NCBI GenBank assembly: GCA_001820685.1 | Contig: MHQP01000009.1 | Span: forward strand, 808 to 64,807 | Reading direction: 5' to 3' | Length of the DNA stretch: 64,000 nucleotides | DNA from: Candidatus Sungbacteria bacterium RIFCSPLOWO2_01_FULL_47_32 | GTDB lineage: Bacteria; Patescibacteriota; Minisyncoccia; Sungbacterales; GWA2-42-14 | Part shown: positions 5,600 through 58,146 of the stretch, piece after piece | Layout of the letters: every line of letters begins with the position of its first letter | How positions within the stretch are numbered: position 1 is the stretch's first letter | Translations under genes and position numbers: made by a program | Notes under the pieces: model-generated | The model's database searches: none | The model's input: the letters and a program-made list of their open reading frames with translations, nothing else | Told to the model about the DNA's origin: nothing

Positions 5600-8500
5600 A
5601 TGCCGGACGATTCAAAACAACTAAACCTGCCCAAGCGCGAGGAAGAGGTGCTCAAGCTATGGGAGACAGAGGGCACATTTGAGAGGAGCCTTGAGAAAAC
5701 GAAAAAAGGAAAGCTTTTTACGTTCTTCGAAGGGCCTCCAACAGCAAATGCCGCTCCAGGCATCCACCACCTTGAATCGCGCGCCTTTAAGGACATTATT
5801 CCTCGCTATAAAACTATGCGCGGTTTTTTTGTTCCAAGAAAAGCAGGCTGGGACACGCACGGGCTTCCGGTCGAAATTCAGGTTGAAAAAGCCCTCGGCC
5901 TCAAGACAAAAAAAGATATTGAAGCATACGGTATCGCGGCATTCAACGAAAAATGCCGGGAGTCCGTGTGGCAATTCAAAGAAGCATGGGAAAAATCAAC
6001 CAAGCGAATCGGATTTTGGCTTGACCTTAAACAACCATATATAACTTACCAATCGGAATATATGGAAAGCCTATGGTGGATAATCAAAGAGATATGGAAA
6101 AAAGGACTATTGTATCAGGACTTCAAGGTAATTCCGTGGTGCTCCCGGTGCGGTACGGGGCTTTCAACGCATGAGCTGGGACAGCCCGGAGCGTATCGTT
6201 CGGTCAAAGAAAATTCCGTTTTTGTGAAGTTAAAAATAATGACCACGGGGCACACGAACGAATATCTGCTCGTGTGGACGACGACACCGTGGACGCTTTC
6301 CGCGAACGTTGCGGTCGCGGTCAATCCAAAAATAGATTACACAAAATTCAAGATTGGGGGCGAATACGTTTGGTCTGCCACACCGCCTCCGTACGGGCAG
6401 GGGGAGGAGATTGGGGTAATTGAAAAAGTTTCGGGGAGGTCTCTCCTTGGAATAATCTACGAACCGCTTTACCGGATTCCGAAAGAATATTCTCTCGGCG
6501 GCACTACCGAATACTCCGTTATCGGAGGAGATTTTGTTTCGACGGAAGACGGAACGGGCATGGTGCACATAGCGCCTGCGTTTGGGGATGAAGATATGAT
6601 TGCGGCAAAAAAAACATGGGGAGAAAAGTATCCGATATTCCATACCGTCAACCTCGACGGTACGATGAAGCGTGGCCTTGTTGGAGAAGGAAAATTCGCA
6701 AAAGATGCTGATGCTGAAATTGTGGAAGAACTTAAAAAGAGAGGGGTGGTGTACAAGGTAAAACCGTTCGAACATGATTATCCGTTTTGCTGGAGGTGTG
6801 GGACCGCCCTTCTCTATTTTGCAAAAAACGCCTGGTGGATAAAAATGTCGGGCTTCAAGGAAAAACTTCTTCAAAACAACGCGACAATCAACTGGGTTCC
6901 GGAACACATTAAAGAAGGGCGGTTCGGAGAATTCTTGCGAGAAGTGCGCGACTGGGCTTTTTCTCGCGACCGGTTTTGGGGAACTCCGCTTCCTGTGTGG
7001 CAATGCGAAGGATGCGGATATCAAGACATCATAGGCTCTTTTGGCGAACTTGATGCGAAAAGCGGGGGCGCTAAGAACAAATATTTGGTCATGCGGCACG
7101 GAGAATCAGAGTCAAATATACAAAATATCTGTGGGGCCAAGGATGGCTATTCGCTGACGCTCAAGGGCAGAACAGAAGTTGAAAAAGCGATTCGAATTCT
7201 GAAGAAGGAAAACATTGATGCCATTTTTGCTTCTCCGATAACCCGAACCAAAGAAACCGCAGAGATTGTGGGAGAATTCCTCGGAAAGACAATTCGCTAC
7301 GACGCGCGGCTTCGCGAGATTAACGTCGGAGACTTCGAAGGGCGGCTTGATCACCTGTATCATAGTTACTTTTCTTCGCATATCGAAAAATTCACCAAAC
7401 GCCCCCCGAACGGAGAAACGTTAAGTGATCTTCGCAGACGCATGATGGATTTTATTGAAGAAATCGAAAAAAAATTTTCAGGCAAAAAAATTCTTATCGT
7501 GAGCCATGAATATCCGATTTGGATGCTTGCAAGCGGCTCTCTCGGCTGGTCGAATGAAGCGACCATTACCGCGCACACCGGCACGAGGGCCGATGATTTC
7601 ATTGATTTTGCCGAGGTACAAGAGCTTTTGTACAAAAAATTACCGCGGGATAATACCGGCGCGGTCAACGTCCATCGGCCGTATAGTGATGAGTTTCGTT
7701 TGCCATGCCCGAAATGCAAAAAGTCGATGAAGCGCGTTTCAGAAGTCGTTGATGTGTGGTTTGACTCCGGGGCAATGCCGTTTGCACAGTCGCATTTTCC
7801 GTTTGCTTTCGAAAAAGGCTCAAAACCAAAAGAAAAACTTTTATTTCCTGCGGAATATATTTCCGAGGCGGTTGACCAGACGCGCGGGTGGTTTTATACG
7901 CTTCTTGCCGTCTCCACACTCCTTGGAAAAGGGGCGCCTTATAAAAATGTTGTTTCTTTGGGGCATGTTCTCGATAAAAATGGACAGAAAATGTCGAAGT
8001 CAAAAGAGAATGTCGTGCGCCCGGACGAAATGATACAAAAATACGGAGCCGACACAATCCGGTGGTATTTCTATTCCATCAACGCTCCGGGCGAGCCGAA
8101 GAAATTCGACGAGAAGGATCTGCAAAACAAACTCCGTGGATTTTTAGGGACACTCTGGAATAGTTTCATTCTTTTCGAAACATATGTTTCGAAAACAAAA
8201 CCCTCAGCGTCGAGCAAAAATATTCTTGACCGGTGGATAGTTGCGCGAACAAACGAGCTTGTTTCAACTGTTTCAAAAGGCCTGGATACTTACGATATTA
8301 CGGGAGCCGCGCGCGCGATAGAAGAGTTCACGATAGGCGATTTTTCAAACTGGTATTTGCGGCGTTCCCGAAGGCGTTTCCAGAAGTCTAAAAGCGCCGT
8401 CGAAAAAAAAGCAGCTACCGAAACAACCGCGTATGTTCTTCTTACTCTTGCAAAACTTACCGCTCCATTCATGCCCTTTGTGGCGGAAATTTTATGGCAG

Positions 8501-9085
8501 GGATTAAGAAAACACTGCGGATTCAAAGAAAAATCCGTGCATCTTTCCGGGTGGCCAAAGACGGAGTTAAGAGTTAAGAATGAAGAATTAAGAATTATTA
8601 AGGAGATGAAAATGGTGCGTGGGGTGGTTGCGGAAGCGCTGAAACTTCGGGCGAGTGTCGGAATAAAGGTGAGACAGCCTCTCGCTTCACTTCAATTCCC
8701 AATTTCCAAACTCAAATTTCAAAACACGAAAGAACTTTTCAGCCTAATAAGAGAAGAAGTAAATGTAAAAGAAGTTATTGACGGAAAAGAATTGAAACTC
8801 GATACCGTGATAACTCCCGAACTGAAAGAAGAAGGGGTTGCCAGGGAGGTTATACGAAACCTTCAGGAGATGAGAAAAGATCTTGGGCTTGAGCCGAAAA
8901 ACAAGATTCGCGCGCAGTTTTCATCTTCTTCGGAGCTTGAAGAGCTACTCTCGCGGCGGGAAAAGTTCATCAAAGAAGAGGCCGGAGCTACCCTCCTGGT
9001 TTTCGGCGGAAAAAAAGTATTTAAAGGAGAACACGAAGTTTTGGTAGACGGCGTGACACTTTGGATTGGGATTAGCCGGCAGTAA
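5600..9085 (+). CDS. ileS: isoleucyl-tRNA synthetase, type 2, with an inserted histidine-phosphatase (PGAM-like) domain
   Basis: [32 protein letters not shown] aligns with type-2 IleS PPTANG.PHVGH...KD..[20 protein letters not shown]. CP1 editing domain. [24 protein letters not shown]. KMSKS. Residues ~485-690 ([13 protein letters not shown] ... ILIVSHEYP) are a histidine phosphatase domain inserted between QCEGCG and CPKC. Confidence 0.9.
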   Translation: [1161 protein letters not shown]

Positions 9086-9743: not shown

Positions 9744-11681
9744 TTGGATACTCATATGCCAGAAAAAATAAACGAACTTAAAGAAAAACTATACTCACGC
9801 GAAGGTCCGGGAGAACGCAAACCCGCAGACGAATTGCACGAGGTACATCGTTCACGCGAGGAAAAGGCAAAAACGCGGTGGGAAGAAGAGGGCGCGAGCC
9901 TTCCCGGGAAAATTCTTCAGCGGGAAGAAGCGGAAGCCAAACCGAAGCGTTCAAAACTTTTCATCGCGGTCATGGTGGTATCCCTCATTTTGCTTTTGGG
10001 AGCGGGCAGTTTTATTTTTTATAGTCTCTACTACAAAAAGAGCGGAGTTTCGCTTGAACTCATCGGAAAAGATACGGTGGAGGCCGGAGACGCGGAGGTG
10101 TGGGTTGTTATCGTCCGGAACGAAGGAGACATCCCGCTGATAAAAAACGAACTCACATTTGCCTATCCAAAAGGAGCTATTCCTCTCGCGGGGGGGGCGA
10201 CAGATCCGTCCGTTCTTCATCCAAAGATATTGATAGATTCAATACAGCCTCGCGAAGAAAAGAGGTTTGAATTTACCGCGCGCCTTTTCGGAAGTGCCGA
10301 CGAGAAAAAAATAGCCGACGCTGGCCTCATCTATCGTCCCGAAAATGTTTCTTCGCGCCTCACAAAACGGGCAAGCTTTAAAACTTCCATTTCACGGGTT
10401 CCGTTCGCTATCGCATATACTGTTTCCCCGGAAATTGTTGGAGGACAAGCTGTCTCGTTTACAGTCGATATAACGTCAAGCTCCAAAGCAACATTCGAAA
10501 ACATGTATGTGAGGATTGATTATCCAGCCGGGTTCCAGTTTGCGTCTGCGGAAGCGGCTCCGGATATTGAGAAGAACATCTGGAGGCTCGGGAATATTTC
10601 GCCAGGGGAGACGCGGCGTATTACCGTTCACGGAACGCTTGCCGGTACACCTGAAGAATTAAAGCCTATTATTGCAAGTTTCGGAGAATATAACCCCGAT
10701 ACGCGCCAATGGAAAGTCTACCTTGAAGGAAGAGGAGAGACTCGCATTTCTTCTCCTCCTCTTTTTGTCCGCCACGAGGTAAATGGGGGAGCGACACATA
10801 CCGGTAGTTTTGGAGATAATATTCAATTCCGGATATTTTATAAAAATACGCTCGGTGTTCTACTGAAAGATGTTTTTATCCGGACAAAAATAAGCGAGGG
10901 CCTCTTAAACATGCGCCAGCTTCATCCCCAATTCGGATTTTACGACGGGCAGACGCACGAAATAGTCTGGAACGCGGCTTCTAACCCGGAACTCAAAGAA
11001 GTTCTTCCCGGAGTAGAGAAAAGCGTTTTCTTTTCCGTCACAACACTTCCTACTCCGCCCGTGCACCAGCCCTCCGATAAAAATTTTGTTCTTGATGTTC
11101 ACACGCGTATCAACACACGGACCGTTCCAAAAGAATATTCCGGCATCAAAATAGAATACGAAAACACTCTTTCGATCAAAATGAAGTCGCGTCTGACACT
11201 TTCTTCTAAATCGATATTCTATGACTCTCCTTTAGGTCCGAATATTGGGAAACTTCCTCCGCGCTCAAACCAGGAAACTGGCTACACCATCCTTATGCAG
11301 GTCGTAAATACCTCAAGCGACCTTAAAGATGCGAAGGTTATGTTCGCGTTACCTGGCAATGTTCGCTGGACGGGCCAGCTAGCGGGGGACAAGACCGAAC
11401 GGGTAAACTACAATCTTTCATCAGGGGAAGCAAGCTGGAATATTGGTGACCTTCCGGCTGGCACCGGCGTTCTGAAGCCTCCGCTCCTTCTTGCGTTCAA
11501 CGTGGTACTGACACCGGGAGCCGATAGCATCGGACAGACCACGATCCTTATAAAGGATATTGCCATTACGGGAACAGATACATTTGCCGGGACAGATTTA
11601 AAAGCGGCAAATAGCGACATTACAACGAGTCTCCAGCAGGATCCGAAAGCGAAAAATTCCGATTGGGCGGTTGGTGAGTAA
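9744..11681 (+). CDS. hypothetical membrane-anchored extracellular protein with beta-sandwich-like repeats (645 aa)
   Basis: Charged N-terminus, then TM FIAVMVVSLILLLGAGSFIFYSL. Long beta-rich body of the DUF11/CARDB-like style. No enzymatic motif. Confidence 0.6.
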   Translation: MDTHMPEKINELKEKLYSREGPGERKPADELHEVHRSREEKAKTRWEEEGASLPGKILQREEAEAKPKRSKLFIAVMVVSLILLLGAGSFIFYSLYYKKSGVSLELIGKDTVEAGDAEVWVVIVRNEGDIPLIKNELTFAYPKGAIPLAGGATDPSVLHPKILIDSIQPREEKRFEFTARLFGSADEKKIADAGLIYRPENVSSRLTKRASFKTSISRVPFAIAYTVSPEIVGGQAVSFTVDITSSSKATFENMYVRIDYPAGFQFASAEAAPDIEKNIWRLGNISPGETRRITVHGTLAGTPEELKPIIASFGEYNPDTRQWKVYLEGRGETRISSPPLFVRHEVNGGATHTGSFGDNIQFRIFYKNTLGVLLKDVFIRTKISEGLLNMRQLHPQFGFYDGQTHEIVWNAASNPELKEVLPGVEKSVFFSVTTLPTPPVHQPSDKNFVLDVHTRINTRTVPKEYSGIKIEYENTLSIKMKSRLTLSSKSIFYDSPLGPNIGKLPPRSNQETGYTILMQVVNTSSDLKDAKVMFALPGNVRWTGQLAGDKTERVNYNLSSGEASWNIGDLPAGTGVLKPPLLLAFNVVLTPGADSIGQTTILIKDIAITGTDTFAGTDLKAANSDITTSLQQDPKAKNSDWAVGE

Positions 11682-49683: not shown

Positions 49684-52600
49684 ATGAATGGAAGGCATCA
49701 TAAAAACACCGATGCTGTCGGTGATCCAATTCATCGCATGTCAAAGAGCCATCCTGAAAAAATTGCGGTCGTCTTGCCCGCGCACAATGAAGCAGCGCAT
49801 ATTGGCGCTGTTCTTCGTGCTCTTGCCGCTTACCCCGTTATTCCCATAGTCGTCGACGACGCATCCGGCGATGGTACTGCAACTCGCGCCGGTTCTCATA
49901 CAAATGTTGCTGTCGTAACCCGCACGTATCGGGGGGGCAAAGAGGCTGCTCTTAAAGACGGACTTCATGAGGCGCTTCGCCGTGGCGTCGACGCAGTGGT
50001 CTTTATGGATGCCGACGGACAGCATGATCCGGCCGACATCGAAAAGTTTCTTACTCTCTGGAGAAGCGAGCATCCGGATGTAATTATTGGAATGCGAAAT
50101 TTGAGAAGTCGCGTAATGCCTCTTTCGCGAAAAGTGTGGAACCGTCTTATAAGCCTGCTCATCGGATTTTTTGCCGAAAAAATCTTTTCTGATACTCAAT
50201 GCGGATTTCGTCTTTTTTCTCGCCGTGCCGCCGAAAAACTTTCATTCGGTGCATCCGGGTATGCGTTTGAAACTGAGAGCATATACGAAATGCTTGAACA
50301 AGGCTTTGAGGTACGCGTGGTTCCCATAAAAACCATATATAATAAAGTCGGCAAAGAATCACTTTTCGAAATAAGCCGGGCTATGCATCTTTTTTATTAT
50401 GCCGTGACGCGTGGCATGCGCTGTTCGGTAAAACGCTCTTTTCAGATTTTCCATCAGGTAGCAAAGCCGGCGCTCATCCTTCTTTTTATTTTTCTTTCGT
50501 TTCTGCTTTTTGTGGAGTCATATATGGCGGCGACCAATGAGCCACAAGCCTCTCGCAATGCCCTCTCTGCGGAATATCTTGCGGCATTTACCTGGTTAAA
50601 AAAACACACCGAACCCAGCGCGATTATTATGGCACACTGGTATCGCGGCAACCAGATCGTCGCATTCGCAGACCGGAGAGTTGTTTCTACGACGAAAGTG
50701 TACCCCACGGAGGCTACAGATGTTGCCGAACGGCACCGTGATATTGCAAAGTTTTTTCTTGCGGGAGACGAAACAAAAGCGCTTTCAGTTGCCACAAAAT
50801 ACAGCGCGTCATATGTTTTCGTAAGCAAAGACTTCGAGGCGTGGCTCTGCAATAACATCTCCCGGTGTGATGTTAGTCTCGACGGGCGGACGCTTTCCCG
50901 CCGGGCAATGCGGCAAACTTTCGCTGGCCGCATGGCGCAAGGAGATGAGTTCACGCATTTTAAAAAAGTCTGGAATTCCCCGCACATTGCGATATATAAA
51001 ATAACCGATGCGGACCAGTCTATTCCTCACCATGTTCGGGAGACAGCGCTTTTTATTGCCCGCTCGACGATTGAGGCCGCACTCAACGGTAAAACGCTCA
51101 CACCACAAGACTTTCAAAAGCTTATTCGCGCACGGGGGCTGGATGAGGCGTTTTCCGAAAAAATGGATGTTGATGTTTCTGCGTGGTCAAACCAACGCTT
51201 TCGCGCCTCACGCCTTGGGATTGGTGGGACATTACTAGGAAACATTGTTCTTGCCGCGCACGCCACTGCATTTGATAACCGCTTTTACTCGCTTGAAAAA
51301 AGCGAGGTCGAAGCAATGCAGGTTGAAGTCGTATTCATGAAAGATGACCCATATCCTCTTGAGCCATACGCGCTTAAAACAGCCTCTATCGATCCTTTTA
51401 AGGGCTATGCGCTTGAATATAAAAATAATAGGGTCATCTTTCTTCCGGAGGTTTTTAATGTTCATCAGTACCACAATCTTGCGGAATTTTTAGGAAGTCT
51501 GTGCAGGAAGGGAGGGTTTGCGGCATCGTGCTATCGTGAGCCGGATGCGCGCGTAACTGCGTTTAGCGTGGAAGATATCATTGAGTCAAAAGATAAAAAA
51601 ACCATTCTTGAGCTCGCGGGGCCCTTGGTTGATGCTTTGGCCGAATACTCCGATACCCGTCTCATGGCGCGTCTCGGACTTGCCGCCCGGTGGCTTTTGG
51701 CAAACAGCGACGCCGAAGGGCGCATGACATTTACTATTAATCCGCTTGACGGCACCGAGTCCAGAAATTTTGACGTGATCAGAAATGCTCTCGGATCACA
51801 AAGCCTGGCCGCATTCTATCGAATAAGCGGCGATAAAAACTTTTTGGAAAGCGCACAAAAAAGCAGAAATTATATCGTATCAAAAAGAGAGTTTCTCCGG
51901 AGCAATTACCCGAGCGAAAAGCTTCCCACCGGTATTTTGAATTTTCTTATTCTTGCCGACCTTGAACTTTTTGACATAACACACAACGAAACTTATAAAA
52001 CTTCGGCGGTTATGTGGACAAACATGCTGTGGTCTTTACGATCCGGAAGAGAGGACTTTTCTTTGGTGTTTTTTCCAGATGGGAAATCTGCCGGCGCTGA
52101 AGGAAGAAGAAGTGACCCAATCGTTCGTTATCAAGCGCTCGCTGCTCTTGCAAAATCAATGCGTGTGACCGGAAGTTCTGCGCGCCTTAAGGACCTTGAA
52201 TTGCTTGCATCAATGTACCAGAAGGAGTTTCAGCAGGGCCGGATACTGAAAGAAGGCAAACTCTCTATCGCAAAAAATGCCTGGCTCGTCAATGCGTTTG
52301 CGGAAATGTATCGTCTTACGAAAAAACGTGAATATGCCGATTTTGCCTTTGACGTTGCGGACTGGCTGCTTGGTTACCAGCTTTTGGGAGGGGCCGGGAA
52401 GGAGGGTGCGTTCACCAACACTCCGGCCGATGACGATACGTATTACGCGCGCGGCACAGGAAAAACGACGGAAGCGCTCGCCGACGCGTATGCTTTGGCA
52501 AAAGAGACGGGAGACGCACGGAGAGAAAAAATATACGCCGAATCTCTCCGTTCTGCGTTTGGCTGGCTTATGAGTCTTCAGCTGACAGACGAAAACAGCT

Positions 52601-52734
52601 TCTGGGTTTCCCCCTCGGCGCTTTCACGTTCTATTGGCGGCCTGCGCCACGATGTAAAAAATCCTAAATTATGGATTGACAGCGCTTCGCATTTTCTTCT
52701 CGGCGGCTCCATGTATTTGAAATCCTTAAAATAG
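49684..52734 (+). CDS. polyprenyl-phosphate glycosyltransferase (GT2, GtrB/DPM1/Ppm1-like) fused to 2-3 TM helices and a ~740 aa extracytoplasmic domain
   Basis: N-terminal KIAVVLPAHNE. VVDDASGDGT. VVFMDADGQHDP (DxD). QCGFRLFSRR. TM helices at ~240-290. C-terminal region with (alpha/alpha)-repeat-like helix pairs (ADWLLGYQLLGGAGKEGAF, FGWLMSLQLTDENSFW), preceded by WYRGNQI...DRR...YVFV. Confidence 0.8.
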   Translation: MNGRHHKNTDAVGDPIHRMSKSHPEKIAVVLPAHNEAAHIGAVLRALAAYPVIPIVVDDASGDGTATRAGSHTNVAVVTRTYRGGKEAALKDGLHEALRRGVDAVVFMDADGQHDPADIEKFLTLWRSEHPDVIIGMRNLRSRVMPLSRKVWNRLISLLIGFFAEKIFSDTQCGFRLFSRRAAEKLSFGASGYAFETESIYEMLEQGFEVRVVPIKTIYNKVGKESLFEISRAMHLFYYAVTRGMRCSVKRSFQIFHQVAKPALILLFIFLSFLLFVESYMAATNEPQASRNALSAEYLAAFTWLKKHTEPSAIIMAHWYRGNQIVAFADRRVVSTTKVYPTEATDVAERHRDIAKFFLAGDETKALSVATKYSASYVFVSKDFEAWLCNNISRCDVSLDGRTLSRRAMRQTFAGRMAQGDEFTHFKKVWNSPHIAIYKITDADQSIPHHVRETALFIARSTIEAALNGKTLTPQDFQKLIRARGLDEAFSEKMDVDVSAWSNQRFRASRLGIGGTLLGNIVLAAHATAFDNRFYSLEKSEVEAMQVEVVFMKDDPYPLEPYALKTASIDPFKGYALEYKNNRVIFLPEVFNVHQYHNLAEFLGSLCRKGGFAASCYREPDARVTAFSVEDIIESKDKKTILELAGPLVDALAEYSDTRLMARLGLAARWLLANSDAEGRMTFTINPLDGTESRNFDVIRNALGSQSLAAFYRISGDKNFLESAQKSRNYIVSKREFLRSNYPSEKLPTGILNFLILADLELFDITHNETYKTSAVMWTNMLWSLRSGREDFSLVFFPDGKSAGAEGRRSDPIVRYQALAALAKSMRVTGSSARLKDLELLASMYQKEFQQGRILKEGKLSIAKNAWLVNAFAEMYRLTKKREYADFAFDVADWLLGYQLLGGAGKEGAFTNTPADDDTYYARGTGKTTEALADAYALAKETGDARREKIYAESLRSAFGWLMSLQLTDENSFWVSPSALSRSIGGLRHDVKNPKLWIDSASHFLLGGSMYLKSLK

Positions 52735-52742
52735 TATTTCGC

Positions 52743-54545
52743 ATGAACAATGTCCTGCTAAAAAAAAGACGGACTCTCGTTGCGGCAGGGTTGCTTGTTT
52801 TTATTTTCATGGGAGGGCTCTATGTGCGAACCATTCGCACGGGACATTACCTCCCATATCACACTGTTGCCAGCTACTACTATGATAAATCAAACCGGCT
52901 GAATAACGACGGGGTTTTCCCCAAAACGGATATATGGGATTTTGCCCCGGACGCAAGGATTGATAATGCTCCTCCGGGACTGGCCTATATAACGGTCTTT
53001 CTCTACCGGGTGTTCGGCGGCAGAACAGCATTTTATGATTTTGCCCAAACGTTTCCTCTTTTCATATATGCGGCATGGTTCATCATGCTCGTTCTTTCTT
53101 TTAGAAAGCTTTTTGGCGCGCTCATAACGCTCGGAGGAGCAGCACTTTTTGCATTTCTTCCCGTCTCAGCTTTTTTTACAACACGCGGCCACTATCTGGA
53201 AGAGACGCTCGGCGCGTTACTTATTTTCATCATGGTGCATTGTATTATCCGAATTCCCGAGGAAAAAGAACGGCGGCAACGACACATTCTTAGTATTTCT
53301 CTTCTTCTTTCTACGGCACTTTTCGCGCTCACCTGGCAGCAATATATCGTGGTACTGGGTGCTGCGGGAGCACTCATAGCACTCTGGGCCTTTAAAAAAA
53401 GCGTCGCATCAGCCGGTCTTCTTGCCCTCGCCATCGCGGGCGGGGTCTTTCTTGCCGAGGCTTGGTGTCGTTTGGCAGGACTCGGATATTCGCCGCTTAT
53501 GATGGCATGGGAGTTTATCTATGCCACTATTCACCACAATGATCCGGCACTCTATGCCGCGATGCGTCGAACGGACTGGGCAAATCCCGGTCTCAAAGAT
53601 CTATATAGTTATTTTGGCGCGCTCGGCATACTTGCGGGTATCCTCGGGGTTTTCTCCGTACTTACCGATCTAAAAAACTCACGGAAGCAAGTAATCGGGA
53701 TATTTGCCGCCGCAGGGCTTGTGGTACTTGCCGCATTTGTAAAGGACCGGTTTTTAGCATTGACCCTTTTTTTATATCTCTTCGCGCTTGGCCTTGATGT
53801 TCTTATCCATCCTGAAATGATACGCCGCGCCTTCAAATCTTTTTTTTCGTTACCGGGAGTGGCGCGGTCTCTTTGTATCGTGGGCGCCCATAAAAAAGAA
53901 CTCACGGCCGGAGTGTGCGTTCTTATTGCCAGTGGAATAGTGTTCACTCTATTCTCCGATACCATTCTTTCGAAGACGCTGTATCGAAATAAACCGCTTC
54001 CTATAATCACTGTTTCATCCGGCAATACGCCGCTGAAGGTCGGCGGCTCGTATAAGGTCGTTCTTACTCTTAAAAATACCGGCGGAAGGCCTCTTTCCGG
54101 AGATAGTGTTTTCGGCGGCCTGCACGTGGAGATTGAAAACGCAATCGTTAAAAACATTCGCGCGTATTCGCGTTTCACCAAATCGGAGGCGTCACTTAAA
54201 AACTTCGCCTGGGCGGGAGACAAATTTTTCTTTGAAACGAAATATTATTTTCTCAATTCGAGCGAGGATGGGGGGGTTACGTTCGTGGTCGAACCATATG
54301 CCCTGCCGGTAACAATTTATTACCGCGGATGGCTGCCGGGGTTTTGCACGAAAGAAGAGCGAGGTACGGCGCTTAACGATCTCCTGCCTGCTTGGAAGAG
54401 AGATGACAAAGGCGGCTGGCGAAACGAATCCTGTATCATGCGCGCGCCGGAGACCCCGGAAAACGGAGCAACCCTTTGCCGCATACCTGTTATGGCGGCT
54501 CACCAAGCAATTCAGGACTTTCCGTGTTTTGAGAAGCAATTGTAA
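52743..54545 (+). CDS. GT-C fold glycosyltransferase, PMT_2/ArnT-like (GT39/GT83-like)
   Basis: First-loop motif TDIWDFAPDARIDNAPPGLAYITVFLYRVFGG matches the D/E...PPL-Y....FG pattern of ArnT/PMT_2. ~11 TM helices. ~200 aa C-terminal soluble domain. Starts 9 nt after the GT2 gene. Confidence 0.65.
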   Translation: MNNVLLKKRRTLVAAGLLVFIFMGGLYVRTIRTGHYLPYHTVASYYYDKSNRLNNDGVFPKTDIWDFAPDARIDNAPPGLAYITVFLYRVFGGRTAFYDFAQTFPLFIYAAWFIMLVLSFRKLFGALITLGGAALFAFLPVSAFFTTRGHYLEETLGALLIFIMVHCIIRIPEEKERRQRHILSISLLLSTALFALTWQQYIVVLGAAGALIALWAFKKSVASAGLLALAIAGGVFLAEAWCRLAGLGYSPLMMAWEFIYATIHHNDPALYAAMRRTDWANPGLKDLYSYFGALGILAGILGVFSVLTDLKNSRKQVIGIFAAAGLVVLAAFVKDRFLALTLFLYLFALGLDVLIHPEMIRRAFKSFFSLPGVARSLCIVGAHKKELTAGVCVLIASGIVFTLFSDTILSKTLYRNKPLPIITVSSGNTPLKVGGSYKVVLTLKNTGGRPLSGDSVFGGLHVEIENAIVKNIRAYSRFTKSEASLKNFAWAGDKFFFETKYYFLNSSEDGGVTFVVEPYALPVTIYYRGWLPGFCTKEERGTALNDLLPAWKRDDKGGWRNESCIMRAPETPENGATLCRIPVMAAHQAIQDFPCFEKQL

Positions 54546-54664: not shown

Positions 54665-56125
54665 TTAAAACTTTTCAACAAATCCGGCGCCCTCTCCGAA
54701 ATAAATCACTCCCCGCTCTCCCCGGTTAAGGCGCTGCACAATGTCGCCCCCGGGAGAGATTATGGCAGAGATGCCGGTCTTATAAGCCCGGAAAAGCCAT
54801 ACGTGGGCCTCGGTCGCGCGAAGCTGTGCCATTCTAAGCGTACCGCGAAAAATGAAATTCGATAGAAATGGACGGTCGCTTCCCGAAACAACAAGAATGG
54901 GTGCGCCCATGCGCTTGATGCGATTCAGGAACTTCGGTGAAAATGGCTCATTACAGATGGCTGCGGCAAATATGCCGTCCGGCGTCAGAAGACCATTTTT
55001 TTCTGCGGCATCAGCCGGAACAAATGGCGTTATCGAATAACCGACGGGTTTATCAAAAAGATACTTATAAAAACCGCCGGGGCGGTAGTCAGAAACCGGG
55101 AACAATATCTCTTTTTTGTACTTTCCGACGACCTCGCCGTGTTGTAACGCGAACATTGTCTGAAGAATAATACCACCCTCCGTTTTTACCGGAATGTAGA
55201 ATATAACAGTCGCATCCGTTTCAATAAGTGTTTTGCCGAGCGTTTGCGTCCAAAAATCTTTTGAAAGCTTTGACTCCGCCGTTACAGGCGAGACGATCTG
55301 CGCCGAAAAAATGATCGTTTGAACGTTTCGCGTAAGCGCCTTTTTGATAAGCGGACCGTAATTCTCATCACGTTCTATCGGAAAAGTATCCGGAAATTTC
55401 ACATTGGGTTGAATAATAGCAACAGATGGTAAACCGGCCGGATATTCCGCTGAAATTCGCTCATGCAACATAACACCATAGAGGAAAAAAATGATAAGCC
55501 CGAATAACGAGAGGCTAATGTAAAAAAGCGGGATTCGCGTAAGCGGACGAAATACACAGCACGCATAGAGAATGCTCCCTGAAAACACTGTTATAAAACT
55601 TAAGAGGGGAACACCCAAAAATATCCCCGCCAGTTCCCGAAAGAGCCCTATGGCAACGAGCGGAATACCCACAAACCACCAATCAAATCCGAAGGTGACC
55701 ACGCGTATGACAAGCTCTGACACGACCCAAAGCGCCGGAAAGACAAACAGAATAAGCGGCTCATGCGGAATTTTTCTTGCCACCAATTTAAGCGCTACAA
55801 ACATGATACCAAAAACACCGCCAAAGATACCCGCGGCAACCGCGAATATGCCCAAAACTCTGGCAATAAGCTTGGGGTCGAAAGCAGTTGCGGCGCCAAA
55901 CACTTCGGATTCAGCATCGAGAAGCGGCGGCAATCCTATAAGGAGGAAAAGAGTTCCGACAAACGCGCCCCACAAAAAAACCGTAAAAACTGCCTTGGAA
56001 ACGACCATGCGCATACCGAAAAGGAGGGGTGGAAATATAAAAAACGCAAGAAACCACAGAGGTCCGCTCCAGTATGAAAGCCCAAAAAAAACCATTGAAA
56101 GAAGGAATGGAAGGAATGTGCGCAT
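54665..56125 (-). CDS. lnt: apolipoprotein N-acyltransferase
   Basis: N-terminal ~6-7 TM. C-terminal CN-hydrolase domain with IIQPNV (Glu), K, and AAICNEPF (catalytic Cys). Confidence 0.75.
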   Translation of the reverse strand: MRTFLPFLLSMVFFGLSYWSGPLWFLAFFIFPPLLFGMRMVVSKAVFTVFLWGAFVGTLFLLIGLPPLLDAESEVFGAATAFDPKLIARVLGIFAVAAGIFGGVFGIMFVALKLVARKIPHEPLILFVFPALWVVSELVIRVVTFGFDWWFVGIPLVAIGLFRELAGIFLGVPLLSFITVFSGSILYACCVFRPLTRIPLFYISLSLFGLIIFFLYGVMLHERISAEYPAGLPSVAIIQPNVKFPDTFPIERDENYGPLIKKALTRNVQTIIFSAQIVSPVTAESKLSKDFWTQTLGKTLIETDATVIFYIPVKTEGGIILQTMFALQHGEVVGKYKKEILFPVSDYRPGGFYKYLFDKPVGYSITPFVPADAAEKNGLLTPDGIFAAAICNEPFSPKFLNRIKRMGAPILVVSGSDRPFLSNFIFRGTLRMAQLRATEAHVWLFRAYKTGISAIISPGGDIVQRLNRGERGVIYFGEGAGFVEKF

Positions 56126-56223: not shown

Positions 56224-56251
56224 AAGAAGATCCCCTAGAGGGGATCTTCTT
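56224..56251. terminator. perfect palindromic hairpin aagaagatcccc-taga-ggggatcttctt
   Basis: Between the 3' end of the surface-protein gene and the lnt start. Confidence 0.5.
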
Positions 56252-56268
56252 CTTTAATTGCTTTTGTA

Positions 56269-58035
56269 TTATTTTCCGCCTTCTCCCTCGCCACCGCCAC
56301 CGCCCGCTTCGGCACCTGCATCTTCATCTTCAGCTTCAGCACCACCGCCCGCTTCGGCACCTGCATTTTCATCTTCAGCTTCAGCACCACCGCCCGCTTC
56401 GGCACCTGCATTTTCATCTTCAGCGTCGGCTCCTCCAGGGGCTCCGGGACCTGTATCAGGGCCGGCATTTTCAACATCTGAACCATCTGCAGCTTCGGCA
56501 CCTGCATTTTCATCTTCAGCGTCGGCTCCTCCAGGGGCTCCGGGACCTGTATCAGGACCGGCATTACCGCCGGAAACTTCAGGGGCGTTAGCTCCGACCT
56601 CAACTTCAGCAACACTTCCAGGGGCGCCGGGACCGGTATCAGGGCCGGGATTTCCAACATCCACATCCACCCCCACATCCATGTCAATACCTATATCCAC
56701 ATCTATGTCAATACCTATATCCACATCAGTAGTAACGTCTACGGTAGGAGTAAGGCCAAAGAAACTTGCGATTGCATTTATTGCATTGATGGCCATCTGA
56801 CCAATTGTGCTTAAAAGTCCGCCGAACATGCCATCAATCGCATTGCTTATCATGCCATTCGTTACTGCGTCTACAACTGCAACAACGGCCATCGCCATCA
56901 TTCCTATTGGGCCAGTAACTGCCGTAATTCCGAGGCCGACAACGCCCAATCCTACCGACGCAGGAGTAGCGCCATTGCCTATTCCTATAGCACCCGCAAC
57001 GGCACCTCCTATTCCGGTAGCTGCAGGCCCGCCACCTCCACTTCCGCCTCCATCTCCGCTTGTCCCGCCTGACGTTCCTCCTGATGTGCCTCCATCTGTA
57101 CTGCCGCTCCCATCAGACATTCCGCCCGTAGTTCCTCCGGAGTCTGTTGATGGACTGCCAGCATCAGAACCTCCGCCTGATGTCGTATCGCTGGTTGGTG
57201 AAGAGCATGAAAGCGTTCCGCAGCTCTCGCAAGATCCCCCAACGTAAGTGCAGTCGGCAGGCGGGGGAGCACAGGAGACACACGATGACGGAGGGGGAGG
57301 CGAAGATGTTGGCGAAGATGTTGGAGCTAACGCAAGACCCGGTTCAACGCTCCATCCGGTGATTTTGTTATCATATGATATTTTCCACCATGTAAAACCA
57401 TCCGCGACCATAGGTCCGTCGATAACTGTGCCCAGAGAACCGGAGGGTTCATTGCCGATAAGTGTTCCGGAGGACGAAGGAGAAGAGCGGACATTCAAAA
57501 CTTCTGTTGTAATGACCCTGTCTCCGATAGAAAACATCGGAGTGATGATTTCAGGAGTCGGTGTTGTCGGAGGCGAACTCGGAGCGGGGGGTAAAGAAGC
57601 GGGAACTACCTTAACGTTAAATGTGGTCTGCGCGGCGAGCCCGTTTCCGGTTGCGTATGCCGTGATCGCATATATTCCGAGGGGGGTTGTTGGCGTCGTA
57701 GTTATAATAATCGTCGTACCGCATGGAGGGATGCAGGAAGAAGGGGCAAATAAAAACGATGAGTCCGAAGGAAGTCCGGCTGCCGAAAAGGCAACCTTTT
57801 CTTCCGCAGCCGGGCTTATAAAAGCGTTAAGCGTATTCGCGGCACTTTGTCCTTGGGCAATAGTTACGTCTCCTCCGTTTTGAAGGAGGAATGCGATGGA
57901 TCCGGGCGGCGTTGACGTGGAGGTTTGAGCGATAACGAAGCCAGCCGGGAAACTTAGAATTGCCAGGTGGGCGATAAGCGCAAACGAAATTGTTTTTCCC
58001 ACAAGGGAAGAGGCTCTTTGTGAAAATATTTTCAT
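56269..58035 (-). CDS. large secreted Ser/Thr/Gly-rich repeat protein with an SH3b-like domain (589 aa)
   Basis: Signal peptide MKIFSQRASSLVGKTISFALIAHLAILSFPAGFVIAQ (Met 31 of the track ORF). SH3b-like GDRVITTEVLNVRSSPSSSGTLIG...WWKISYD...GWS. Cys cluster CVSCAPPPADCTYVGGSCESCGTLSC. Gly-zipper hydrophobic segment. (D-hydrophobic)n run DVDIGIDIDVDIGIDMDVGVDVDVG. Acidic tandem repeats GPDTGPGAPGGADAEDENAGAEA. Confidence 0.7.
   Translation of the reverse strand: MKIFSQRASSLVGKTISFALIAHLAILSFPAGFVIAQTSTSTPPGSIAFLLQNGGDVTIAQGQSAANTLNAFISPAAEEKVAFSAAGLPSDSSFLFAPSSCIPPCGTTIIITTTPTTPLGIYAITAYATGNGLAAQTTFNVKVVPASLPPAPSSPPTTPTPEIITPMFSIGDRVITTEVLNVRSSPSSSGTLIGNEPSGSLGTVIDGPMVADGFTWWKISYDNKITGWSVEPGLALAPTSSPTSSPPPPSSCVSCAPPPADCTYVGGSCESCGTLSCSSPTSDTTSGGGSDAGSPSTDSGGTTGGMSDGSGSTDGGTSGGTSGGTSGDGGGSGGGGPAATGIGGAVAGAIGIGNGATPASVGLGVVGLGITAVTGPIGMMAMAVVAVVDAVTNGMISNAIDGMFGGLLSTIGQMAINAINAIASFFGLTPTVDVTTDVDIGIDIDVDIGIDMDVGVDVDVGNPGPDTGPGAPGSVAEVEVGANAPEVSGGNAGPDTGPGAPGGADAEDENAGAEAADGSDVENAGPDTGPGAPGGADAEDENAGAEAGGGAEAEDENAGAEAGGGAEAEDEDAGAEAGGGGGEGEGGK
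56290..56730. repeat. in-frame tandem DNA repeats (units ~45 and ~96 bp) inside the surface-protein gene
   Basis: Seen directly: repeated caccaccgcccgcttcggcacctgcatyttcatcttcagcttcag and ...gcgtcggctcctccaggggctccgggacctgtatcaggrccggcatt... Confidence 0.8.
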
Positions 58036-58115
58036 AAAAGAAGGTATTTTTTGAAGTTTTATATTATCTTCATAGTACTCCATTCTATGCTTATTCACAA
58101 ATTCCCTATGCACAG

Positions 58116-58146
58116 AAAAATGCAAAAACCCGCCTCAAGGCGGGTT
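58116..58146 (-). terminator. intrinsic terminator after yvcK
   Basis: aacccgccttgaggcgggtt followed by tttgcattttt on the minus strand. Confidence 0.55.

Follow-up and report, generated by a model that had tools for sequence, protein, structure and literature searches.

A putative modular surface protein of Candidatus Sungbacteria with a conserved, marginally hydrophobic C-terminal module

The stretch of 64,000 nucleotides from contig MHQP01000009.1 of Candidatus Sungbacteria bacterium RIFCSPLOWO2_01_FULL_47_32 analysed here (hereafter the window) carries on its minus strand a gene for a 588-amino-acid (aa) protein. An inspection of the letters alone, without database searches (hereafter the sequence-only reading), had described it as a composite secreted repeat protein and had considered a cell-surface or S-layer-like protein, an adhesin or the precursor of a bacteriocin-like effector; its observation is partly confirmed by our analysis and its interpretation partly supported. 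The only part of the protein that is conserved with its relatives is a Gly/Ala-rich hydrophobic module of ~95 aa in the C-terminal half, which defines a very small family so far met only in metagenome assemblies. We favour the reading, to which we assign a probability of roughly 45%, that the product is a surface protein without enzymatic activity which binds the wall, is exported through Sec and is kept at the membrane by this module, its stalk being disordered and its polyanionic tail polymorphic.

The module that defines the family

The Gly/Ala/Ile-rich hydrophobic segment pointed out in the sequence-only reading is indeed present (Table 1). An exhaustive phmmer search of 1.84 billion cluster representatives with residues 336-473 returned two matches, P0003 (E 4.5e-10) and P0004 (E 4.2e-6), and five further loci came from scanning metagenomes with the alignment of the module. 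Over its ~95 aa the module is 41-48% identical to that of other lineages and is kept in the same reading frame. The alignment used here (A3) comprises seven module sequences; against its profile the window protein scores 125 bits, being itself among the sequences from which the profile was built. Members of the P0003 and P0004 clusters are named by NCBI as Parcubacteria and Microgenomates group bacteria, and all NCBI-named members of the family belong to the candidate phyla radiation (CPR). The organism of the window, a groundwater bacterium, is also an uncultivated member of the CPR, because the neighbouring proteins bear the names Candidatus Sungbacteria or Parcubacteria group in NCBI and UniRef.

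All members share one plan, i.e., a signal-peptide-like start, a variable head, a spacer of biased composition, the ~95-aa module and an acidic, Gly-rich tail. The heads of both relatives consist of a different domain from that of the window protein; of the two, the P0003 lineage has an SH3b domain, ~50% identical to that of the window protein, and P0004 lacks one. A variable head mounted on a constant C-terminal module looks like an anchoring or mounting device. Invariant in the seven members are D389, S397, N398, G405, G406, G412, the terminal FFG and a Gly-Pro pair. AlphaFold2 (AF2) places two helices in the module, with low confidence (predicted local distance difference test, pLDDT, about 42 in a full-length model from three sequences). 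Helix 1 (residues 359-392) has the invariant Gly-Pro kink in its middle, and helix 2 (residues 399-425) is amphipathic, with a hydrophobic moment of about 1.2. In the three-sequence alignment the conserved G405, S409, G412, I416 and N420 of helix 2 follow a 4-3-4-4 spacing, which puts them on one face. On the Kyte-Doolittle scale the module peaks at 2.06 and looks transmembrane.

The glycine-zipper spacing that had been read into this segment did not hold up. It contains three GxxxG motifs against a shuffle mean of 4.9 and 18 small-xxx-small motifs against 18.1, and the positions of the motifs differ between members. Neither the seven module sequences (E up to 10) nor the whole protein matched Gly-zipper_Omp, Gly-zipper_YMGG, Gly-zipper_OmpA or Rick_17kDa_Anti. 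More generally, no Pfam family (E up to 10), no NCBIfam family and nothing significant among PDB sequences was found for the module, and a search of PDB sequences with the whole protein gave no match either. An ATP-synthase c-subunit-like proteolipid hairpin, i.e., a Gly-rich helix with a conserved carboxylate, was rejected at an hhalign probability of 0.4%. A phage origin was also dropped, as no relative of the module was found on viral contigs and there were no PHROG matches. The A3 profile detected no paralogue of the module elsewhere in the window. Word-indexed homologue searches were swamped by low complexity: they gave only two partial matches for the whole protein, none for the N-terminal 279 residues and none for the module profile. 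A scan of genome contigs with the window protein recovered no relative, and one with its CofD-like neighbour recovered only relatives of ~50% identity, without synteny.

Within the family, P0004 and P0016 (locus L011 versus L013/L014) are 98% identical, and a cluster of differences between them lies at module residues ~322-343, where they read AVADSVTNGQVSNAVDGFFGGVL versus AIADAVTDGQVSNSVDAVTGGLF. In one of the two versions this patch is the same as in the L015 type, a more distant member, pointing to recombination among alleles of the family.

The gene, its folded head and its lineage-specific parts

The open reading frame (ORF) on the minus strand extends over 56269..58125, and the sequence-only reading had both coordinates and strand of the gene right. 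A TTG start at 58125 was rejected, since it sits in the terminator hairpin of the upstream CofD-like gene and since the ATG at 58035 is the start used in public gene calls and yields the 588-aa product. Terminator-like hairpins stand on both sides of the gene (Table 1), which in appearance is monocistronic. The product has a pI of about 4 and a net charge of about -57, which is also the value for its mature form.

The gene and its repeat array are reproducible. An identical 588-aa protein occurs on five public contigs, three of which were fetched and compared at the DNA level. These three come from different assemblies (ENA ERZ4903072, a Rifle groundwater assembly under PRJNA268031, and an 'ANAN16-1' scaffold) and over 17.7 kb share 99.88-99.99% identity with the window; one is a population variant with 20 single-nucleotide polymorphisms (SNPs). 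With the same protein on five contigs and the module kept in frame in other lineages, the gene is real, and an assembly artefact in the repeat array, which the sequence-only reading had named as a possible objection, is unlikely. Further ORFs of 180, 150, 146 and 211 aa, rich in Pro, Ser and Ala, overlap the gene on the plus strand or in alternative frames (window 56235..57883 (+)); they look like side effects of the low complexity and the many repeats of this DNA, and nothing supports them as genes.

Table 1. Positions of the gene, its parts and its neighbours in the window
Feature	Residues	Position	Strand	Basis or remark
Complete gene, 588 aa + stop codon		56269..58035	-	ORF list, public gene calls
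Signal-peptide-like N-terminus	1-36	57928..58035	-	Sequence, hydropathy
Ig-like beta-sandwich	44-148	57592..57906	-	P0002 homology, AF2, Foldseek
SH3b domain	166-236	57328..57540	-	Pfam, P0001 identity, AF2, Foldseek
Six-Cys mini-domain	252-277	57205..57282	-	Cys positions, AF2
G/S/T/D low-complexity spacer	278-335	57031..57204	-	Composition
Gly/Ala-rich hydrophobic module	336-427	56755..57030	-	phmmer, metagenome loci, alignment A3, AF2, hydropathy
Alternating (D/G/T)-(V/I/M) run	431-461	56653..56745	-	Tandem Repeats Finder, parity count
Acidic Gly/Ala/Pro/Asp/Glu tail	462-588	56272..56652	-	Tandem Repeats Finder, composition
Terminator hairpin of upstream CofD-like gene		58148-58125		Encloses TTG 58125; terminator scan
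12-bp-stem palindromic hairpin, terminator-like boundary		56224..56251	-	Begins 18 bases past stop codon; terminator scan, sequence
Divergent Lnt-like gene, 486 aa, directly downstream		54665..56125	-	Pfam, NCBIfam, tblastn, alignment to E. coli Lnt
600-aa polytopic membrane protein, C-terminal soluble part		52743..54545	+	
1016-aa fusion, N-terminal GT2 + AMMECR1 domain		49684..52734	+	

The proposed signal peptide is matched by a signal-peptide-like segment, as judged from sequence and hydropathy. K2, R7 and K14 are followed by a hydrophobic core of 22 aa and by VIA/QT, the segment has a Wimley-White octanol value of -6.2 kcal/mol, and the N-termini of the relatives look much the same. Cleavage would fall after VIA; the long h-region could instead be an uncleaved signal anchor.

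Both folded domains of the head that had been suggested are well supported. The immunoglobulin (Ig)-like domain is homologous to the repeated domain of P0002. Its AF2 model, for which three homologous P0002 repeats served as alignment, has an all-beta fold with a pLDDT of 90.4 and a predicted template modelling score (pTM) of 0.79. Foldseek matched it, at E about 1e-4, to the Ig-like linker domain of a sialidase, PKD domains, SbsC S-layer domains and titin Ig. C101 and C105 form its conserved SxSCxPxC pair. The SH3b domain is set between Pro/Ser/Thr linkers (residues 149-165 and 237-251). Pfam SH3_3 (PF08239) aligned to residues 179-228 with 26.5 bits (E 7.3e-6; gathering cutoff 27 bits), and the stretch is 55% identical to the PF08239-annotated part of P0001. 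The AF2 model of residues 165-235 has a pLDDT of about 96, and Foldseek found the SH3b domains of YrvJ, NlpC/P60 enzymes, a phage endolysin, LytB and lysostaphin, with a TM-score against isolated SH3 domains of about 0.7. The domain is presumed to bind peptidoglycan. A catalytic domain was not found in Pfam, NCBIfam, PHROGs or PDB sequences.

The Cys cluster that follows is real, although it holds six cysteines instead of the eight claimed, the remaining two being those of the Ig-like domain. C252, C255, C262, C269, C272 and C277 are arranged as C-x2-C-x6-C-x6-C-x2-C-x4-C, i.e., two CxxC pairs and two further Cys, and are modelled by AF2 as a beta-hairpin with a pLDDT of 76-82. The composition of residues 278-335 agrees with the S/T/G/D stretch described before. 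This spacer is without Lys or Arg and has an AF2 pLDDT below 50; the spacers of the relatives have the same compositional bias in a different sequence. It is a candidate for an O-glycosylated, disordered stalk. Neither Lys nor Arg occurs between residues 225 and 587, so the C-terminal 363 residues would be invisible to tryptic digests, which matters for the proteomics that the sequence-only reading had proposed.

The strictly alternating Asp/hydrophobic run was confirmed by a parity count: 10 of 10 Asp fall at one parity, and Val, Ile or Met occupies 14 of the 15 positions of the other. The run is partly generated by a 24-bp tandem repeat of 2.3 copies (96% identity, 56673-56727), detected with Tandem Repeats Finder. 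Pfam gave no match to the RTX family, and an RTX nonapeptide (GGxGxDxUx) or a calcium loop (DxDxDG) was rejected by eye, as the run reads DxDxDxG. The acidic tail beyond it is built from tandem units of 32 and 15 aa, and its sole Lys or Arg is the C-terminal Lys (...GEGEGGK). At the DNA level, arrays at 56297-56550 consist of a 45-bp unit in 2.8 copies (98%) and a 96-bp period in 2.7 copies (80%). The repeats had been called near-perfect, which is true of the 45-bp array, spanning 128 bp, but not of the 96-bp period; two 69-bp copies in the tail differ at three bases. The length variability expected of them is seen in the relatives, where, within 90% clusters, variants of 94-98% identity differ in length only in the tail (duplication of a 28-aa unit, loss of a 6-aa unit, an extra GET). 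It was not seen in the array of the window protein itself, as judged from the protein on five contigs and the DNA of three. The relatives have neither Cys cluster nor Asp run, and we infer that these two and the repeat arrays are recent lineage-specific elaborations and not part of the conserved core.

Elsewhere in the window, an isoleucyl-tRNA-synthetase-like protein of 1161 aa (5600..9085 (+)) has a histidine-phosphatase (His_Phos_1) domain at residues 496-655, inserted where its class I catalytic domain is divided into two halves. A DUF11-domain protein of 645 aa (9744..11681 (+)) is a further candidate surface protein and has no match to the module. A single tRNA, at a long distance from the gene, is all that Rfam detected in the window.

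Anchor, effector or modified substrate?

According to the reading we favour, the protein would be exported by the Sec pathway, its signal peptide being cut after VIA. The SH3b/Ig-like head would bind the peptidoglycan of either the cell's own wall or a host cell, from the end of a flexible and possibly O-glycosylated stalk of about 75 residues, and the C-terminal module would hold the protein at the cytoplasmic membrane. The module may take the form of a kinked helix or helical hairpin with an amphipathic interfacial helix, and it probably self-associates via a face of conserved small and polar residues. At the surface of membrane or wall, the Asp-faced alternating strand and the polyanionic tail would remain as a disordered, cation-binding brush. 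A cell-surface protein, one of the possibilities raised in the sequence-only reading, agrees with the signal-peptide-like N-terminus, the Ig-like and SH3b domains, the Pro/Ser/Thr and Gly/Ser/Thr/Asp spacers, the lack of a catalytic domain and the strongly negative charge.

Several observations weigh against the part assigned to the module. On the Wimley-White octanol scale the module attains no better than -1.6 and -3.2 kcal/mol in its most favourable 19-residue windows, against -5 to -17 kcal/mol for transmembrane helices in three membrane proteins encoded in the same stretch of DNA (Lnt-like, AI-2E and EamA); because the module falls short of such genuine helices, stop-transfer anchoring is not assured. 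Its hydrophobic segments are without flanking positive residues, which is unusual for a stable anchor, and the AF2 confidence for the module is low. A known sorting or anchoring signal was not recognised either (0 NCBIfam families): there is no signal of the LPXTG, PEP-CTERM, PGF-CTERM or GlyGly-CTERM type and no LPXTG-type motif, and 160 acidic residues, with a single Lys at the very end, come after the module. In view of the weak Wimley-White values and the missing basic flanks, the module is a marginal membrane segment, which could be either an atypical anchor or a peptide that remains in solution before contact with a membrane.

The second of these options leads to a membrane-active effector, released or wall-bound, whose head would dock on the wall of a competitor or host and whose module would insert and oligomerise, via its conserved Asp, Asn and Ser and its small-residue face, to form a pore or a membrane contact. 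This is the main rival of the reading we favour, but in our view unlikely. A number of features fit it: the marginal hydrophobicity in comparison with real transmembrane helices of the same genome; the missing basic flanks, a pattern typical of peptides that are soluble before insertion; polar and acidic residues that are invariant within the module helices; and an SH3b domain of the sort that targets lysins and lysostaphin-type bacteriocins, with endolysin and lysostaphin among the Foldseek matches. It would also fit a borderline but order-specific likeness of helix 2 and the FFG to dicistrovirus VP4. The best PDB sequence match of the module profile is the VP4 of mud crab dicistrovirus (6iic_D), at an hmmsearch E of 0.04 that is not significant at the database level; it pairs target residues ~385-427 (window 56755..56880) with the C-terminal 46 residues of VP4. 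Direct comparison with hhalign gave P 3e-4 and a probability of 40%, with 43% identity over 40 columns, ending at the C-terminal IFGF of VP4. The VP4 fragment scores 17.3 bits and none of 3000 shuffles reached this score (mean 2.3, maximum 13.3); the likeness therefore depends on residue order and not on composition alone. VP4 is a small capsid peptide that is freed together with the genome, and its enterovirus counterpart assists passage through the endosomal membrane (PMC5286892). Module and VP4 can be aligned from the end of helix 1 through helix 2 to the terminal (I/F)FG(F/L), but the biological contexts are unrelated, and the likeness is probably a convergence that hints at membrane activity and not a sign of homology.

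Against such an effector stands the failure of the product to match any bacteriocin, toxin, glycine-zipper or viroporin family, together with the lack of GxxxG enrichment, the strongly anionic character, and the absence of relatives on viral contigs. Nor do the adjacent genes include a small membrane gene of the immunity type, an ABC/C39 exporter or a gene of a secretion system; in loci L014 and L018 of the relatives the neighbours are housekeeping genes. The proposal of a bacteriocin-like precursor was for similar reasons not upheld: no Pfam, NCBIfam or PHROG family was matched, and an exported head of 335 residues, instead of a short leader, precedes the hydrophobic segment.

The surroundings of the gene raise the question whether the protein is a dedicated substrate or partner of its neighbours, which include genes for CofD-like, Lnt-like, hexapeptide-transferase and TopA proteins. 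The protein encoded directly downstream has Pfam CN_hydrolase and weak LNT_N matches, and scores 114.9 bits against NCBIfam lnt, under the cutoff of 132.9. In alignment with E. coli Lnt it keeps K335, C387 and E389 and lacks E267, W237 and Y388. The WPES of E. coli is replaced by FSAQ (FPAQ in L014), and the catalytic Glu267 is thereby lost; the last transmembrane helix is also missing. Beyond this gene lie the 600-aa polytopic protein, for which nothing was found in Pfam, NCBIfam or PDB sequences, and the fusion whose glycosyltransferase family 2 (GT2) domain resembles polyprenyl-phosphate-sugar synthases (PpgS/AglJ-like). Together, GT2 fusion, 600-aa gene and Lnt-like gene look like an envelope glycosylation cluster, and O-glycosylation of the Ser/Thr-rich spacers may reasonably be supposed on the basis of these neighbouring genes only. 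In Corynebacterium, Lnt (Ppm2) and the polyprenol-phosphate-mannose synthase (Ppm1) couple lipoprotein acylation with O-glycosylation (PMC3460810).

Two versions of such a partnership can be envisaged. In one, the Ser/Thr spacers would be O-glycosylated via a polyprenyl-phosphate-sugar pathway comparable with actinobacterial Ppm1/Ppm2/Pmt; in the other, a lipid modification, e.g., of the single C-terminal Lys, and not the module, would fix the protein to the envelope. The documented Lnt(Ppm2)/Ppm1 coupling and the genes for GT2 and the polytopic protein beyond the Lnt-like gene are in line with this idea, as is the position of an Lnt-like gene next to the family gene not only in the window but also in the P0004/L015 lineage (L011, L013, L014 and L015; 52-57% identity by tblastn), but not in the P0003 lineage (L010, L018). 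The C-terminus follows the same division: members with an Lnt-like neighbour end in [DE]GGK-stop (window 56272..56292; around 8450-8480 in L013 and L014; around 2800 in L015), this Lys being the only one in 240-360 otherwise Lys- and Arg-free residues, and the P0003/L016 lineage, without such a neighbour, ends in ...SAGGAP, a pattern that rests on three lineages. Nevertheless, we regard a dedicated partnership as improbable. The adjacency occurs in only two independent lineages, and the pairing can be explained as decaying ancestral synteny, because in the L014 lineage as in the L018 lineage the family gene has a CCA-adding enzyme gene, encoded on the opposite strand, as its upstream neighbour. 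In L014 the GT2 and 600-aa genes are not beside the family gene. A terminator-like hairpin separates the window gene from the Lnt-like gene, a lipobox Cys is lacking in the protein, the Lnt-like protein is without its catalytic Glu, and the 600-aa protein fits no glycosyltransferase family in Pfam, NCBIfam or PDB.

More speculative still, and in our estimate very improbable, is that the module is a membrane-insertion and oligomerisation domain, new to science, of episymbiotic CPR bacteria that leaves the producer behind a wall-binding SH3b head and enters the membrane of a host, forming a pore or junction for nutrient uptake, or that the pairing with the gene for the catalytically divergent Lnt-like protein marks a new pathway for C-terminal modification or sorting via the GGK end; under host insertion the viroporin-like helix 2 would be functionally meaningful. 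Finally, that there is no real gene at all but a chance low-complexity ORF, or a repeat array collapsed or expanded in assembly, is hardly credible: low-complexity DNA does open long ORFs on the opposite strand too and the contigs do stem from short-read metagenome assemblies, but the SH3b and Ig-like domains fold confidently, the module recurs elsewhere in the same reading frame, the identical protein is found across three assemblies including the variant with 20 SNPs, and the 128-bp array of 45-bp units is, in our judgement, short for an assembly collapse.

Comparison with known systems

The head of the protein has its closest counterparts among the SH3b (PF08239) wall-binding modules found in surface proteins of Gram-positive bacteria, endolysins and lysostaphin-type enzymes, with which it shares the fold, a near-threshold Pfam score and an expected non-covalent binding to peptidoglycan. 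The closest sequence relative, P0001, combines the same type of SH3b with PG_binding_1 and a beta-sandwich head. Unlike the wall hydrolases that carry such domains, the window protein has no hydrolase or other catalytic domain and adds the hydrophobic module and the acidic tail.

Membrane-anchored stalk proteins, such as archaeal S-layer glycoproteins, SlaB-type stalks and the O-mannosylated exported proteins of actinobacteria, have a signal peptide, beta-sandwich domains, a Ser/Thr/Pro-rich spacer and a C-terminal hydrophobic segment in the same order as the protein of the window, near which genes of the glycosylation type also occur. It differs from them in that its hydrophobic segment is not terminal and is followed not by basic residues but by a polyanionic tail of 160 residues. 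The likeness does not extend to S-layer proteins proper, as had been suggested: no SLH, CWB2 or other S-layer family was matched in Pfam or NCBIfam, the resemblance of the Ig-like domain to SbsC is generic, and two small folded domains are too little for a lattice.

Glycine-zipper proteins and toxins (SlyB/Gly-zipper 2TM, VacA-type, and contact-dependent glycine-zipper bacteriocins) and class II bacteriocins form a third group for comparison. They have in common with the module Gly/Ala-rich, modestly hydrophobic helices and conserved small residues such as those on the face of helix 2. However, the window protein is large and anionic, its segment is internal, starting at residue 336 of 588, and the leader, immunity gene and transporter gene of class II bacteriocins are lacking.

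Modular surface proteins are thus a familiar type, whereas the conserved module is described in no database searched. CPR bacteria (Patescibacteria) live attached to other cells, and to our knowledge the proteins at the interface between CPR bacteria and their partner cells are almost unknown. As an unusual anchor, the module would extend the range of ways by which monoderm-like CPR cells fix proteins on their surface; should it act on the membrane of a host, it would be a concrete candidate, open to testing, for the host-contact machinery.

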